DNA from: a virus
Taxonomy: Duplodnaviria; Heunggongvirae; Uroviricota; Caudoviricetes
Direction: 5' to 3' (one strand)
Length of the DNA stretch: 15,824 bases
IMG/VR virus record: IMGVR_UViG_2663763282_000011
Position 1 is the stretch's first letter. Each line of letters opens with the position of its first letter. Position numbers and translations under genes: made by a program. Below the pieces are notes generated by a model, which worked only from the letters and a program-made list of their open reading frames with translations, was not told where the DNA came from and did no database searches. Below, in pieces: positions 1 through 6,858 of the stretch.

Positions 1-1230
1 ATGAGCAGAGCACTTAACAAACTGAGCGATACACAGCTGAGGAAAATCAACGGCACACCCGCCCAAAAAACAGCCTTTCTTAATGACGGTGGAAACCTGA
101 GCGTCAGGCATTCAACCAGTGGCCTTTTAACCTGGTATTTCACTTACAGGGCCGGAACGGGAAGGGGGGCACCACCGGAACGCATTAAGCTGGGAAATTA
201 TCCTGATCTGAGCCTGAAATCAGCCAGGGAAAAAGCCGCCCAGTGTCGCGCATGGCTGGCAGAGGGGAAAAATCCACGTCATGAGCTTAATTACACCGTA
301 CAGGAAGCGTTAAAGCCGGTAACGGTTGGCGATGCGCTCACCTACTGGCTTGAGTCGTACGCAAAGGAAAACCGCGTGGATTATGCCGCCCTGAAAAAGC
401 GCCTTAATAATCACGTAATACAGCACATTGGTGCTATGCCGCTGGATAAATGCGAGCTACGGCACTGGCTGGCCTGTTTTGACCAGGTGGCAAAGCGAAC
501 GCCTGTTACTGCCGGATTCTTGCTACAGACGTGCAAACAGGCGCTTAAGTTCTGCCGGAGGCGGCGCTATGCAATCAGCAACGTTCTTGATGATATGAGT
601 GTGGCGGACGTTGGGAAAAAACCGGATATAAGCGAGCGTGTCTTAAGCACCAAAGAACTGGGCGAATTATTGCAGGCACTGGACAAAAAAATATTCTCCC
701 CCTACTACATCGCGTTAATCCGCCTCCTGATTGTGTTCGGATGCCGGACGGTAGAACTGAGGTTATCGGAGATCAGCGAGTGGGATTTTACCGAAATGCT
801 CTGGACCGTGCCGAAAGAACACAGCAAAACGAAGGTGGCAATATTCCGGCCCATACCGGAAGCAATACTGCCGTTCGTCACGCAGCTGGTGGAGCAGAAC
901 AGGCACACGGGCTTATTGCTGGGGGAAGTGAAACAGGAAACAAGCGTGTCGCAGTACGGCAGATTAGCGCACAGGAGGCTAAATCACCCTCACTGGTCAC
1001 TACATGACATCCGGCGCACCTTTACAACGATGCTGAACGATTTAGGCGTGGATCCTCACGTCGTGGAGCAGCTTACAGGCCACCAGATGCCAGGAATGCA
1101 GCGAGTTTATAATCATTCCCGTTATCTGGATGCTAAACGCAATGCGCTGGATATGTGGACGGAGCGGTTAGGGATACTGGCGGGAACACATGAAAACGTA
1201 ACCACGCTACCAGTAGCCAGAAGAAAATAA
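1..1230 (+). CDS. int: Site-specific tyrosine recombinase (P4-type integrase), 409 aa
   Basis: The C-terminal region has the catalytic signature of tyrosine recombinases (HDIRRTFTT...LTGHQ...VYNHSRYLD, i.e. R, H-x-x-R and Y). The N-terminal 'LSDTQLRK...GNLSVRHSTSG...YFTYR' resembles the arm-binding domain of P4-like integrases. The ORF starts at the ATG at position 1, so the true 5' context is outside the window. Confidence 0.9.
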   Translation: MSRALNKLSDTQLRKINGTPAQKTAFLNDGGNLSVRHSTSGLLTWYFTYRAGTGRGAPPERIKLGNYPDLSLKSAREKAAQCRAWLAEGKNPRHELNYTVQEALKPVTVGDALTYWLESYAKENRVDYAALKKRLNNHVIQHIGAMPLDKCELRHWLACFDQVAKRTPVTAGFLLQTCKQALKFCRRRRYAISNVLDDMSVADVGKKPDISERVLSTKELGELLQALDKKIFSPYYIALIRLLIVFGCRTVELRLSEISEWDFTEMLWTVPKEHSKTKVAIFRPIPEAILPFVTQLVEQNRHTGLLLGEVKQETSVSQYGRLAHRRLNHPHWSLHDIRRTFTTMLNDLGVDPHVVEQLTGHQMPGMQRVYNHSRYLDAKRNALDMWTERLGILAGTHENVTTLPVARRK

Positions 1231-1604: not shown

Positions 1605-1793
1605 GTGTTAAGCACTGATCGGTTTATACGTGAAAAAGAATGCGAAAAGCTAACAGGCCTTAGCCGCTCATGCCGCTACCGCCTGGAAAAGGCCGGACAA
1701 TTCCCATCACGTCGTAAACTTGGCGGTCGTTCCGTTGGCTGGTCTTTATCCGAGGTTCTGGCCTGGAAGGATAGCTGCAAGGCAGTTCATTAA
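1605..1793 (+). CDS. alpA: AlpA-family phage transcriptional regulator / excisionase-like HTH protein, 62 aa, GTG start
   Basis: Translation 'FIREKECEKLTGLSRSCRYRLEKAGQFPSRRKLGGRSVGWSLSEVLAWK' matches the AlpA/MerR-like winged-HTH pattern. Strong SD (AAAGGGGG) lies 6-7 nt upstream of the GTG. Position directly downstream of int is typical for Gram-negative PICIs and P4-like islands. Confidence 0.85.
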   Translation: MLSTDRFIREKECEKLTGLSRSCRYRLEKAGQFPSRRKLGGRSVGWSLSEVLAWKDSCKAVH

Positions 1794-2062
1794 TCACGCT
1801 GGCGGCACGCAGCCGCCACACATCAATCATCTGAACACAGAGCTATAACCATGAAGATTGAATATACGCCAGAACGTGGGCGGGGATTCGTTCGCCCTGG
1901 TGAAACTGGAAAACCACAAAATTGGGGTTTTTCAGGCATAAAAAAAGCGGCCCCGAAATGGAGCCGCCTTTCTGAACAGATAACCCGCTGCGCCGTTTGT
2001 GTGTGTGATCCCAAACATAAGCACGGGGATGATAGCCGCTATCAGGCTGGTGGGCAATGCAA

Positions 2063-2239
2063 TCAGTCTGGTTCAGTGCGTTGCCATAACTGCGAAGTTC
2101 TCTCCTTTGATGAGTATTCTTTAAGGTACTTCTCAAGGGCAAAAGAACACGGCGCGAATCGTTCTGATTCATGCTCTTTCTTTCTGCGTCGTCTTTTTCG
2201 TGCAGGTGATGTTTTTTCGGTTGATTCTTCGTTGGTCAT
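2063..2239 (-). CDS. Hypothetical small basic protein, 58 aa (MTNEESTEKTSPARKRRRRKKEHESERF...)
   Basis: Open frame on the minus strand co-directional with and just downstream of the RHH gene. No convincing SD. Below the ORF-track length cutoff, found by manual translation. Confidence 0.2.
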   Translation of the reverse strand: MTNEESTEKTSPARKRRRRKKEHESERFAPCSFALEKYLKEYSSKERTSQLWQRTEPD

Positions 2240-2296
2240 TGTGTGCGCCTGTAAAGCAATGCGCCGTAGTACCTCACACCACGGCGCTGATAGTTT

Positions 2297-2476
2297 TTAT
2301 CCTTTGGGTTCTATGCCGCGTTGCTGTAATTCTTTGCGGATTATTCGCTTTATCCAGGCAGCAAGAGAATCATCGCCGTCCTGTTGTTGTGCCTTTTCCA
2401 TCTTTTCCCGTAAGTCAGGATCTAAACGGAACTGGAACGGAGGATTACCACGCCTTTCGTTTTTGTGTGTTGACAC
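2297..2476 (-). CDS. Arc/MetJ-type ribbon-helix-helix DNA-binding protein, 59 aa, GTG start
   Basis: Manual minus-strand translation '(M)STHKNERRGNPPFQFRLDPDLREKMEKAQQQDGDDSLAAWIKRIIRKELQQRGIEPKG' aligns position by position with phage P22 Arc (beta strand 'FQFRLDP', helix A, G-x-S, helix B). GAGGTG SD lies about 8 nt upstream of the GTG. The overlapping + strand ORF 2200-2481 looks non-protein-like. Confidence 0.55.
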   Translation of the reverse strand: MSTHKNERRGNPPFQFRLDPDLREKMEKAQQQDGDDSLAAWIKRIIRKELQQRGIEPKG

Positions 2477-2477
2477 G

Positions 2478-2526
2478 TTAATTACACCTCAGGTAATGTA
2501 TTTATGTGTAGTGACACATTACACAC
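2478..2526. promoter_or_regulatory. Operator-like region in the divergent RHH / 2606-ORF intergenic region: inverted repeat GTAATGT-N16-ACATTAC (2493-2499 / 2516-2522) and direct repeat ATTACAC (2481-2487, 2518-2524)
   Basis: Repeats read directly. Location between two divergently oriented genes and the presence of an RHH repressor-type gene suggest an operator (inference). Confidence 0.4.
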
Positions 2527-2605
2527 AATCAACACAAAAAGCAAAGCCCCGCACTGTAGGAGCAGTAACGGGGCTTCTAACCAACAACGTAAACTAGGAG
2601 CCGTT

Positions 2606-2806
2606 ATGGTTGCCGTAAATCATATACCACACCTTGTACACACACAAACGGCCTTTGTGTGGCGTTTTCTGGCACTGAGTGCCGGAGAATCCCAAATCAT
2701 CCACGTAACCGCTTGGACGGAACGCGAAGCGCGTAGCCGTTGCCCGTCCGGTTGTGTTGCTGTATTCGCCGCCCGTATTCGTCAGGGGGAAACCTATGCA
2801 CAATAA
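2606..2806 (+). CDS. Small protein, 66 aa, possibly Icd-like (host cell-division inhibitor family); assignment tentative
   Basis: Strong SD (TAGGAG) 5 nt upstream of ATG 2606. The annotated 2504 start adds a low-complexity N-terminus without an RBS. Motif 'HVTAWTEREARSR' resembles what I recall of Icd-like proteins of P4-type elements; this is from memory and unverified. Confidence 0.4.
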   Translation: MVAVNHIPHLVHTQTAFVWRFLALSAGESQIIHVTAWTEREARSRCPSGCVAVFAARIRQGETYAQ

Positions 2807-3470: not shown

Positions 3471-3770
3471 ATGAAACTTAAATATTCTGGCTTAACTGCC
3501 AGTGGCAACACTCACCCTAAATTTACGCGCGGTGATATTTACCGCGACCAGTACGGCGGCATGGTAACGATTAAAGGCGTGGCAGAACGGCGCATCACCT
3601 ACCGCCGTGAAGGTTACGAATATGATTGCGTGATGCCTGTTTATCAATTCCGGCGTGATTTCACGCTGGTACAGGCAGCGCCCCGCAGTAAACCAACCAG
3701 CAGGGAGAAAGCACGCGCCAATATTCAGGAAATAAAAAAGATGCTTAACGTATTCAGGGGTAAAAAATGA
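3471..3770 (+). CDS. Hypothetical protein, 99 aa, translationally coupled to the primase
   Basis: GGAGA SD upstream; its stop overlaps the primase start (ATGA at 3767-3770). Confidence 0.55.
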   Translation: MKLKYSGLTASGNTHPKFTRGDIYRDQYGGMVTIKGVAERRITYRREGYEYDCVMPVYQFRRDFTLVQAAPRSKPTSREKARANIQEIKKMLNVFRGKK

Positions 3771-5515
3771 AACTGGCACCGAACGTAAAAAAACAGCCAC
3801 GCGGAATAAAACACAAAGACACAGAGGTAATTATCTTTGCGGGTAGTGATGCCTGGTCGCACGCGAAACAATGGCAGGAGCAGGATGGCCCCGCATCCGG
3901 CGATAATGTGCCGCCTGTGTGGCTTGGGCCAAATCAGCTTGCCGAACTTGATGCACTGAAAATTGTTCCGGATGGAAAAAAACGCGTAAGGCTGTACCAG
4001 GCCGGAGAACTGGATTTGGTGGAGACCAAAAAGATTGGTCAGAAGCTGGCGGCGGCAGATATTCAGGACGCAAATTTTTACCCCGAAGGAATGCACGTCC
4101 AGAAGTGTGAAAACTGGCGGCGCTATCTGAATGCTGAGCGTGAAAATATTGCCGCAGGGCTTACCATGCCGGAGCAGAAAAATACGCAACTGGCACAAAT
4201 GGCAGACAGTGAGCGCGCGCAGCTGCTTGCCGAGCGCTTTGATGGCGTTTGTGTGCATCAGGAAAGTGAAATCGTTCACGTATGGCGCGGCGGGGTATGG
4301 TGTCCGGTCAGCACAATGGAACTTAGCCGCGAAATGGTGGTGATCTATTCAGAGCACAGGGCCACTTTCAGCAAGCGCGTAATCAATAACGCCGTGGAAG
4401 CGTTAAAAGTTATTGCCGAACCAATGGGCGAGCCGTCCGGCGATTTGCTGCCGTTCGCCAATGGTGCGCTTGACCTGAAAACGGGGGAATTTTCCCCGCA
4501 CACGCCGGAGAACTGGATCACCACGCACAACGGCATTGAGTACACGCCACCAGCACCAGGGGAGAACATCCGCGATAACGCGCTAAACTTTCATAAATGG
4601 CTTGAGCACGCAGCCGGAAAAGACCAGCGCAAGATGATGCGTATATGTGCCGCGCTGTACATGATTATGGCGAACCGGTACGACTGGCAGATGTTTATTG
4701 AGGCCACCGGAGACGGCGGGAGCGGTAAAAGTACATTCACACACATAGCCAGCCTTCTGGCAGGGAAACAGAACACGGTAAGCGCTGAAATGACATCGCT
4801 TGATGATGCTGGTGGACGTGCGCAGGTTGTCGGGAGTCGTCTTATCGTCCTGGCTGACCAGCCGAAATATACAGGCGAAGGAACGGGCATCAAGAAAATC
4901 ACGGGCGGTGACCCCGTGGAAATTAACCCGAAATACGAAAAGCGTTTCACGGCTGTAATCAGGGCGGTGGTGCTGGCGACCAACAATAACCCGATGATAT
5001 TCACCGAACGGGCCGGAGGTGTGGCACGTCGTCGCGTGATTTTCCGTTTCGACAATATCGTTAGTGAGGCCGAAAAAGACAGGGAGCTACCGGAAAAGAT
5101 TGCGGCTGAAATCCCTGTCATTATCCGCCGATTGCTGGCGAACTTTACCGACTCTGAGAAAGCACGGGCTTTACTACTGGAACAGCGTGACGGTGATGAA
5201 GCTCTGGCAATAAAGCAACAGACGGATCCGGTTATTGAGTTTTGCCAGTTCCTGAATTTTCTGGAGGAAGCACGCGGCCTGATGATGGGCGGCGGTGGCG
5301 ATTCAGTGAAGTACACGACCAGAAACAGCCTTTACCGCGTCTATCTGGCGTTTATGGCGTACGCAGGCAGGAGCAAACCGCTAAACGTAAATGACTTTGG
5401 CAAGGCTATGAAGCCAGCCGCGAAAGTTTACGGACATGAATATATTACGCGGAAAGTTAAGGGAGTAACGCAGACTAACGCAATAACAACAGACGAGTGC
5501 GACGCGTTTTTATAA
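3767..5515 (+). CDS. Replication initiator: phage/plasmid primase-helicase (P4 alpha C-terminal domain type, SF3 NTPase), 582 aa
   Basis: Walker A 'TGDGGSGKST' and Walker B-like 'RLIVLADQ' read in the translation. Size and position (followed directly by iterons) match the PICI pri-rep gene. The N-terminal domain is not confidently assigned. Confidence 0.88.
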   Translation: MKLAPNVKKQPRGIKHKDTEVIIFAGSDAWSHAKQWQEQDGPASGDNVPPVWLGPNQLAELDALKIVPDGKKRVRLYQAGELDLVETKKIGQKLAAADIQDANFYPEGMHVQKCENWRRYLNAERENIAAGLTMPEQKNTQLAQMADSERAQLLAERFDGVCVHQESEIVHVWRGGVWCPVSTMELSREMVVIYSEHRATFSKRVINNAVEALKVIAEPMGEPSGDLLPFANGALDLKTGEFSPHTPENWITTHNGIEYTPPAPGENIRDNALNFHKWLEHAAGKDQRKMMRICAALYMIMANRYDWQMFIEATGDGGSGKSTFTHIASLLAGKQNTVSAEMTSLDDAGGRAQVVGSRLIVLADQPKYTGEGTGIKKITGGDPVEINPKYEKRFTAVIRAVVLATNNNPMIFTERAGGVARRRVIFRFDNIVSEAEKDRELPEKIAAEIPVIIRRLLANFTDSEKARALLLEQRDGDEALAIKQQTDPVIEFCQFLNFLEEARGLMMGGGGDSVKYTTRNSLYRVYLAFMAYAGRSKPLNVNDFGKAMKPAAKVYGHEYITRKVKGVTQTNAITTDECDAFL

Positions 5516-6610: not shown

Positions 6611-6858
6611 TAAATTATTTGTTCGTGGTTGTTCCACGTTGTTCACTGAGCGGATCGGCATATTTTACCCGAACTGAATCATGATTATTCTCGCCCGTGG
6701 TGCCAGGACGCTGGGGCCACTTTCCCGCCTGTTAATGTGCTCGCCAATATTCATTACCAGGCGGGAAAACGATCGGTGCGATTACTGATTTCCTTATGAA
6801 AAACGGTTGAGTGTTTGCCGCGTCCTGGAGTTCCTTACTTAACCCCAGGACTTTTTTT
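6611..6858 (+). promoter_or_regulatory. Control region of the capsid/packaging operon: TTGTTC repeats with inverted repeat CGTGG-N5-CCACG (6617-6646), 10-bp inverted repeat TTCCCGCCTG-N26-CAGGCGGGAA (6722-6767), and hairpin GTCCTGG/CCAGGAC plus T7 (6822-6858) abutting the capsid ATG
   Basis: All elements read directly. A promoter-like TTGTTC-N16-TATTTT is present. Function is inferred. Confidence 0.45.

Follow-up and report, generated by a model that had tools for sequence, protein, structure and literature searches.

The viral DNA analysed here, IMG/VR record IMGVR_UViG_2663763282_000011 (15,824 nt, hereafter the window), carries a capsid-forming phage satellite of the phage-inducible chromosomal island (PICI) type. 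Between alpA and the replication genes, the window harbours what is probably the immunity region of the island, in which a 59-aa ribbon-helix-helix (RHH) protein acting as an autoregulated repressor and a cis-antisense RNA would silence an internal early promoter, and AlpA-driven transcription from upstream would bypass both. Judged from the sequence, the 59-aa protein most likely shuts off the replication operon of the island. A sequence-only reading of the window had named this protein a candidate island repressor; the proposal gains support from the RHH fold, the conserved operators, the promoter overlap and the position next to alpA, and from these features we infer repression. The comparison covered 70 related loci, in most of which the order is int, alpA, (cargo), the RHH gene on the opposite strand, small open reading frames (ORFs), a DUF4222 gene and the primase gene. 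In PICI-type satellites, the RHH gene keeps a conserved place, with alpA on one side and the replication genes on the other.

The 59-aa gene occupies positions 2297-2476 of the minus strand and has a GTG start, exactly where the sequence-only reading had put it. The encoded protein belongs to the RHH superfamily, in a family outside all curated domain libraries. Its predicted fold, a monomer model, is confident and matches RHH proteins including Arc. The RHH layout of an N-terminal beta-strand followed by two helices is present, together with a basic strand residue (R17) and the G-x-S/T/N turn between the helices (G34..S37). R17 and G34 are invariant, and S37 is conserved in at least 90% of the sequences. 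Profile searches yielded a match to PHROG 228 'Arc-like repressor' over residues 5-57 (E=2.1e-6). The Arc/MetJ-type signature described earlier is retained on the strength of the PHROG match, the fold and the three conserved residues, but it is not 'clear' at the sequence level, because the curated Pfam RHH models miss the protein. A PDB sequence profile search gave no qualifying match, and the best NCBIfam model, YlcI/YnfO (NF041551), reached 20 bits against a cut-off of 30. The NCBIfam VapB look-alike was weak (0.012), and distant relatives reach RHH_1, HicB and DUF6290 only below threshold. The 59-aa protein may bind repeated DNA sites through the sheet of a dimer, for which conserved operator half-sites, spaced by 11 bp and co-varying with the N-terminus, provide indirect support.

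Homologues of the 59-aa protein form 117 clusters from Enterobacterales, Orbales and Pasteurellales, nearly all of 55-60 aa, and bear non-functional names ('hypothetical', 'Phage protein' or, for some, the JGI name 'HicB family'). The family is narrow, since an exhaustive profile search retrieved only 54 relatives among 1.84 billion representatives. In O157:H7-type islands, RefSeq/PGAP carries no annotation of the RHH variant (PPYQMRL type) and annotates the plus-strand frame instead. In O157-type islands (L001 3351-3944; L081 2058-2651), a RefSeq plus-strand pseudogene named 'Icd-like protein, incomplete' spans the repressor gene.

A GAGG ribosome-binding site lies 10 nt upstream of the RHH start. 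The codon-position entropy of the gene (0.78/0.59/1.33) and a pN/pS of 0.35, versus 0.52 in the opposite frame, indicate that selection acts on the RHH frame. These values bear on the idea that the 59-aa ORF is unexpressed, a shadow of the long plus-strand frame that resembles eta of P4. Over the RHH gene, that frame is free of stop codons in 51 of 69 loci, and PGAP annotates it and omits the RHH variant in O157:H7-type islands. Nevertheless, a shadow ORF is extremely improbable, given the lower pN/pS of the RHH frame, the confident RHH-matching fold with the PHROG match, the conserved start, ribosome-binding site, length and terminator of the gene, and a Cys-rich plus-strand product that matches no family.

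The sequence-only reading had also seen a palindromic operator region between the RHH gene and the plus-strand genes. The left part of this region (2477 to about 2533) indeed bears conserved repeats that co-vary with the protein, but the right part is predicted to encode a structured antisense RNA and is not operator. The repeats lie as described, GTAATGT at 2493-2499 and ACATTAC at 2516-2522 with 16 nt between them, and ATTACAC at 2481-2487 and 2518-2524. Alone they are not significant, since a 7-nt inverted repeat within about 130 nt has a chance expectation of roughly 0.5 by our own arithmetic and ATTACA is not enriched over the window (9 found, 6.8 expected). Their significance comes from conservation. 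In 36 distinct loci of the same beta-strand type (PPFQFRL N-terminal type, from Escherichia, Xenorhabdus, Pantoea, Gilliamella and others), ATGTGT-N4-ACACATTAC, GTAATGT and ATTACAC are conserved at 80-100%, while the adjacent gene is almost saturated at its synonymous positions (pS 0.77).

Two operators are predicted from this conservation. Operator O1 (2481-2497) consists of ATTACA (2481-2486) and the inverted partner GGTAAT (2492-2497), for which the family consensus is TGTAAT, with half-sites 11 bp apart from centre to centre. Its family consensus, ATTACA-N5-TGTAAT, lies over the spacer and -10 of the predicted plus-strand promoter, P(+). Operator O2 (2504-2523), with columns at least 90% conserved in the 36 distinct loci, is a palindrome of ATGTGT (2504-2509) and ACACAT (2514-2519) nested within the GTAATGT/ACATTAC pair, with ATTACA at 2518-2523. 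Its family consensus combines TGTAAT-N5-ATTACA with ATGTGT-N4-ACACAT, and it lies over both inferred transcription starts and the -10 of the predicted minus-strand promoter, P(-). In the family consensus, the half-sites of both palindromes are 11 bp apart, which corresponds to the geometry of the Arc operator.

The left part varies among the protein types PPFQFRL, KQIALRV, KQIAFRV, PFQLRL and PPYQMRL, and within one and the same stretch of 60-70 nt each N-terminal or beta-strand type shows a repeat set particular to it, inverted or direct. Operator identity follows the identity of the N-terminal part of the protein (Spearman rho 0.75), in which the DNA-reading strand lies. Between types, operator identity is 0.575, which is near-random (shuffles 0.50), versus 0.72 for the adjacent RNA element. 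Some small RHH proteins are activators, such as AmrZ and Mnt at Pmnt, and some islands have tandem RHH paralogues of different type, so the RHH protein might regulate other targets, namely helper-phage or host promoters in interference or superinfection exclusion, or might activate P(-) or P(+). This is unlikely, however, as the matching repeats lie directly beside the gene and co-vary with it, and no further cluster of the operator motif was found in the window.

The early promoter of the kil-like/primase operon, P(+), is predicted from conservation at 2470-2497 on the plus strand, with the -35 TTGACA at 2470-2475, a 16-nt spacer, the -10 GGTAAT at 2492-2497 and a start at about 2504. TTGACA is perfect in 57 of 65 distinct loci, across all immunity types, and is followed at 16-18 nt by TGTAAT, TATAGT, TATATT or similar hexamers; most relatives combine the perfect -35 with a -10 matching at five of six positions. 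The -35 overlaps codons 1-3 of the RHH gene on the opposite strand. The Ser2 codon is TCA in 64 of 66 RHH genes, compared with 23% for the other Ser codons of those genes, and is forced to this codon because the hexamer overlies it. The GTGACA at 2511-2516, taken by eye as the -35 of P(+), was dropped once the conserved TTGACA was found.

The promoter of the RHH gene, P(-), is likewise predicted from conservation (2516-2544, minus strand). It comprises the -35 TTGCTT (reverse complement of 2539-2544, within the terminator tail of the antisense RNA), 17 nt, the -10 TAATGT (reverse complement of 2516-2521) and a start at about 2509. The spacing to TAATGT is exactly 17 nt in 33 loci of the PPFQFRL type, and three others have TAACAT or TAATAT. 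Across the loci, the -35 reads TTGnnn and likewise lies in the tail of the neighbouring terminator. The -10 of other types is TACACT or TACAAT, and TAnnnT was found in 47 of 61 loci. With starts at about 2504 and 2509, P(+) and P(-) would face each other and overlap. The divergent arrangement proposed earlier stands as regards the RHH gene opposite the plus-strand operon; the promoters are face-to-face and overlapping, not simply divergent. The alignment on TTGACA also places the operator-like repeats over the promoter of the plus-strand operon.

The comparison further predicts that the region encodes a cis-antisense RNA of about 75 nt (2534-2612, minus strand), starting a few bases inside the first plus-strand gene. 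All types conserve this right part, in which the linker TCTAACCA stands between two hairpins, the second of them presenting the Shine-Dalgarno sequence in the loop. In RNA orientation, the parts are a 5' hairpin (2586-2605) with an anti-Shine-Dalgarno loop, the linker UGGUUAGA (2576-2583), a terminator hairpin (2544-2576) and a U-rich tail (2534-2543). The long minus-strand hairpin with the U-rich tail after it is terminator-like, and the predicted RNA covers the Shine-Dalgarno sequence and the ATG of the kil-like gene. The counts of G-U pairs (145 on the minus strand versus 19 on the plus strand) identify the minus strand as the structured one, and in each of 61 loci its fold is the more stable of the two. 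In its alignment 94.8% of cells are paired and 15 of 19 pairs show compensatory changes, with a covariation score of 0.414 versus 0.174 for shuffled alignments and at most 0.10 for slid partners. Pairing on the plus strand is 83.6%, with A-C mismatches where the minus strand pairs G-U.

The predicted promoter of the antisense RNA has the -10 hexamer TATGAT at 2619-2624 (minus strand), within codons 5-7 of the kil-like gene. TAnnnT occurs at nt 14-19 of the first plus-strand ORF in 54 of 55 loci, with differing encoded residues and against a background of 1.1% per position. A covariance model of the element (R1) finds exactly one copy per locus, on the strand of the repressor, including loci outside its training; it also matches the YlcI/YnfO-type island, and it does not match P4. 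Rfam has no family for the element in the window or in 16 other loci. The predicted features include an own promoter, structure on the antisense strand and an intrinsic terminator, as in cis-encoded antisense RNAs. A sense-strand RNA of the C4/CI type upstream of the Icd-like gene was dropped as a candidate, since Rfam gave no match to the window with E values as high as 10 allowed.

Other observations concern the RNA element itself. The linker at 2576-2583 is nearly invariant in all immunity types, and may serve as a site for a chaperone or a nuclease, or as the seed for a target in trans. In different islands the element precedes unrelated first genes, which encode Kil/Icd-like proteins, a primase-like zinc-finger protein or proteins of about 120 aa without assigned function. 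Four loci (L025, L034, L053 and L059, around 3720-4400) possess tandem pairs of RHH paralogues of different beta-strand types, and in these the element is located past the second RHH copy.

The first gene of the plus-strand operon (2606-2806) encodes a 66-aa 'Icd-like' protein homologous to P4 Kil. It matches NCBIfam phage_ICD_like (6e-18) and aligns over its full length with P4 Kil in a multiple alignment. BLASTP of this protein against the annotated P4 'cI' ORF gave no match, and tblastn of the RHH and Icd-like proteins against phages did not match P4. The PHROG families matched by the Icd-like gene are labelled 'transcriptional repressor', a label probably inherited from the old annotation of the P4 'cI ORF'.

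Upstream of the kil-like gene, a long eta-like frame (1851-2597, plus strand) is open from 1794, right after the alpA stop, in the frame of alpA; 1851 is the position of its first ATG. In antisense orientation it crosses the entire RHH gene, the operators and the RNA element before ending at the TAG at 2595-2597, which falls in the Shine-Dalgarno sequence of kil, 8 nt ahead of the ATG. The 51 loci with this frame open over the RHH gene far exceed the 24 +/- 3.3 expected from synonymous-codon resampling. Among the 55 loci with an ATG-aligned first gene, the frame continues into that gene in frame in 21, stops at most 15 nt before its ATG in 10 and does neither in 24. The 248-aa product has no Pfam, PHROG or other family match, for which reason it was rejected as a functional protein; it is Cys-rich and resembles a mirror image of the RHH sequence. 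The long frame is possibly a translated leader, and this is the least secure part of the analysis.

A terminator-like hairpin (2261-2287, minus strand; 12-bp stem with 7 GC pairs) directly follows the stop codon of the RHH gene, which looks monocistronic. This touches on the alternative raised in the sequence-only reading, that the RHH protein is an antitoxin. As a type II antitoxin it would have either an unrecognised partner or the Kil/Icd-like protein as its toxin. The VapB match mentioned above, HicB-type look-alikes and the JGI name of some members point in this direction, as does the toxicity of the neighbouring Kil/Icd-like protein in P4 and P1 (PMC10111431). The surroundings of the gene disfavour such a role and leave it very unlikely, as no conserved co-oriented neighbour was found in the 70 loci, the terminator comes directly after the stop, and in Xenorhabdus only 115 nt separate the end of alpA from the RHH stop. 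Two ORFs tried as toxin partners (2063-2239 and 1843-2172) gave no family matches and are confined to near-identical E. coli/Shigella islands. The protein ends about 7 residues past helix 2 and so lacks a C-terminal tail for toxin binding. Moreover, Kil is transcribed divergently and would be controlled by the antisense RNA, which is the logic of a type I system.

Taken as an immunity region, the locus would work as follows. In the quiescent island, the RHH protein, as dimers of dimers on O1 and O2, would shut P(+) and limit its own synthesis. On transcripts that escape, the antisense RNA would block translation of the toxic Kil/Icd-like protein, and by analogy with P4 the blocked transcripts would terminate before the primase genes. 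Once alpA is activated by a helper phage, the alpA promoter would drive transcription across the region during translation of the eta-like frame and head-on through the RHH gene; this transcription would bypass both blocks and turn on the replication and packaging genes. Comparison supports several elements of this scheme. The candidate repressor is an Arc-like RHH protein whose gene starts within the -35 of the predicted strong promoter P(+), O1 would lie over the spacer and -10 of P(+) and O2 over both starts and the -10 of P(-), the antisense RNA from a promoter inside the first plus-strand gene would pair with the ribosome-binding site and start codon of that gene, and the layout resembles the vis-eta/kil region of P4. 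The switch is also compatible with published facts on Gram-negative PICIs, in which AlpA is the only known regulator and an activator, its overexpression alone induces the EcCICFT073 island, and a global repressor is described as 'unclear' (PMC6092414).

Some results weigh against this immunity reading. The Pfam RHH models matched neither the 59-aa protein nor its 56 homologues. A generic sigma-70 scan listed none of P(+), P(-) and the antisense promoter at its threshold, so these three are predicted from conservation alone. Only in about 56% of the loci does the long plus-strand frame extend as far as the first gene. Proteins with the KQIALRV strand adjoin at least three different repeat sets, and part of the co-variation between operator and N-terminus could reflect physical linkage in recombination modules. 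Finally, as published induction works through AlpA alone, the RHH protein is perhaps not the master switch.

The last point also speaks for a rival proposal, that the RHH protein is a governor of replication or copy number comparable to CopG/RNAII, which with the antisense RNA damps the primase operon after induction, the off state being the mere absence of AlpA. The parts list is identical to that of the immunity region. Because AlpA overexpression alone induces EcCICFT073, removal of a repressor is not needed, and uncontrolled replication of the island is toxic (PMC6092414). Nonetheless, a governor acting only after induction is rather unlikely, since the perfect -35 and five-of-six -10 of P(+) in most relatives should make this promoter constitutive unless it is repressed, and a constitutive promoter is the case that P4 handles by immunity (PMC10111431). 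This proposal and the immunity reading differ in timing, not in mechanism.

A more far-reaching form of the immunity reading is offered tentatively. Together, the RHH protein and the antisense RNA may provide Gram-negative PICIs and capsid-forming PICIs with the immunity (master-repression) system that had been missing, in the form of a transcription-collision toggle with the repressor gene antisense within a translated eta-like leader. AlpA-driven transcription and translation would then silence the repressor head-on, strip the antisense RNA off the kil start and escape Rho termination, and the different beta-strand/operator types would define satellite immunity groups, so that one cell could host several islands.

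The remaining part of the window is in agreement with an island of this kind. An integrase gene (1-1230, plus strand) is followed by alpA (1605-1793, plus strand; Pfam Phage_AlpA 5e-18), which encodes the activator of Gram-negative PICIs, the plus-strand cluster of small ORFs, a DUF4222 gene and the D5/primase gene (3767-5515). The alpA promoter is likely the analogue of P4 PLL. After alpA, and within the long plus-strand frame, lies a bidirectional terminator-like hairpin (1936-1971), recognised from the sequence; its Rfam look-alikes are weak and only of terminator type. Downstream of the primase gene are capsid, protease, portal, HNH and terminase genes, and phoQ closes the window on the right. 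In 6476 bases, one differs between the window and a Shigella flexneri chromosome. In the major capsid gene (6811-8016), one in-frame TGA (7684-7686) separates ORFs of 291 aa and 109 aa; either a nonsense mutation or a sequencing error may account for this codon, which would leave the capsid-forming PICI capsid-defective. Masked runs of N are present at 8612-8699, within the protease/portal junction, and at 11191-11352, within the small-terminase region.

The region, or most of it, was found in 556 of 5426 complete E. coli genomes (about 10%). The commonest E. coli RHH variant (P0036) is indexed in 1457 blocks of a public assembly collection. Islands with P0036 (L073-L076) have prophage capsid and portal genes at their flanks, and in them a defence gene with a TIR domain separates alpA from the RHH gene. 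Both Gram-negative PICIs and capsid-forming PICIs are abundant; in later satellite surveys, genes of this sort are classed as accessory ('HicB', 'YlcI/YnfO') or left out. The present analysis provides a candidate for the repressor of Gram-negative PICIs, with coordinates for the protein, the predicted operator, three predicted promoters and the predicted antisense RNA, by which the off state becomes directly testable. A further outcome is a connection of PICI regulation with P4 immunity, together with a definition of likely immunity types, which would be relevant to the engineering of PICIs as delivery vehicles and to island coexistence.

Among known systems, the immI region of P22 possesses the RHH repressors Mnt and Arc, the promoters Pant and Pmnt and the antisense RNA sar. 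Similar to P22 immI, the window has a small gene for a candidate RHH repressor opposite an operon, with a palindromic operator over the overlapping promoters between them, and a short antisense RNA from inside the operon would cover the ribosome-binding site of a downstream gene; this layout is recognised here by comparative inference only. Unlike in P22, the window protein has no Pfam Arc/Mnt match, the operon encodes a Kil/Icd-like protein and a primase and no antirepressor, only one RHH gene is present and is nested antisense in a long ORF, and the element is a satellite, not a phage. A tblastn search of the RHH protein against phages retrieved only 4 phage records, none of them P22.

In plasmid pMV158, the RHH protein CopG (such proteins have about 45-60 aa) and the antisense RNAII control repB, and CopG is co-transcribed with repB from the promoter that it represses. 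A similar dual control, by an RHH transcriptional repressor and a small antisense RNA over a translation start, is predicted for the window. However, the repressor of the window has its gene on the other strand under a promoter of its own, and the direct antisense target is a kil-like gene, not a replication gene. As in the immI region of P1/P7 (c4 RNA-icd-ant) and in type I toxin-antitoxin systems, a small RNA at the ribosome-binding site would block translation of an Icd/Kil-type toxin. The c4 RNA of P1/P7 is a sense-strand RNA processed from the same transcript and acting in trans, whereas the window RNA is cis-antisense, has its own predicted promoter and shows no Rfam C4 match.

The YlcI/YnfO family (NF041551, DUF3950) has a 59-aa member in the identical slot of sister islands with the same antisense RNA, and its pattern of strand, helix, G-x-S/T and helix is similar to that of the window protein. 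An hhalign comparison of the window family with the sister-island member gave E 0.41, no significant relation. In the sister island L002 (2795-3175), three direct repeats GTGGCTGACA surround a textbook TTGACG-17-TAATAT in the same slot, an operator type unlike that of the window. This suggests that YlcI/YnfO proteins are repressors too.

Like Stl/Rpr of SaPIs and Gram-positive PICIs, the 59-aa protein is a proposed satellite repressor located at the junction of integration and replication genes and holding quiescence (PMC6092414). Stl and Rpr, however, are large, transcribed with int, removed by a helper-phage protein, not RHH proteins and without homology to the 59-aa protein, which is encoded opposite to int on an island whose known induction route is AlpA (PMC6092414).

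In P4, eta is a long ORF that follows the AlpA homologue vis, and kil corresponds to its C-terminal part, with the CI (Rfam C4) and seqA (Rfam isrK) RNAs inside eta. Kil represents the truncated product, whereas translation of eta occurs only on transcripts of the late promoter upstream and prevents termination (PMC10111431). The window shares with P4 the series of int, an AlpA-family gene, a long ORF, a Kil homologue first after an internal promoter, and primase (PMC10111431), with Kil translation as the controlled step in P4 and, by prediction, in the window. Unlike the window, P4 has neither a protein repressor nor an RHH protein. The immunity RNA (C4 family) and seqA (isrK family) of P4 are on the sense strand, whereas the window has a predicted cis-antisense RNA, of which P4 has none; both Rfam families were found in P4 and were absent from the window at the gathering threshold and at E up to 10. 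The long ORF of the window is out of frame with kil, which it precedes by 8 nt, whereas P4 eta is in frame. Two Pasteurellaceae islands (L064 2960-3732 and L071 3518-3725) harbour P4-type isrK (seqA) and C4 (CI) RNAs together with an RHH gene; these RNAs lie downstream of the antisense-RNA element and inside the long ORF. The Rfam int-alpA RNA motif was detected in L055, L064 and L071.

Each part of the region thus has a precedent, in Mnt/Arc and sar of P22, in CopG and RNAII of pMV158 and in eta/kil of P4, and the combination is not described in the literature searched. It brings together an RHH family that is unclassified and antisense within an eta-like frame, a promoter -35 placed in the first three codons of the repressor, and a new predicted antisense RNA family in the place that CI has in P4.

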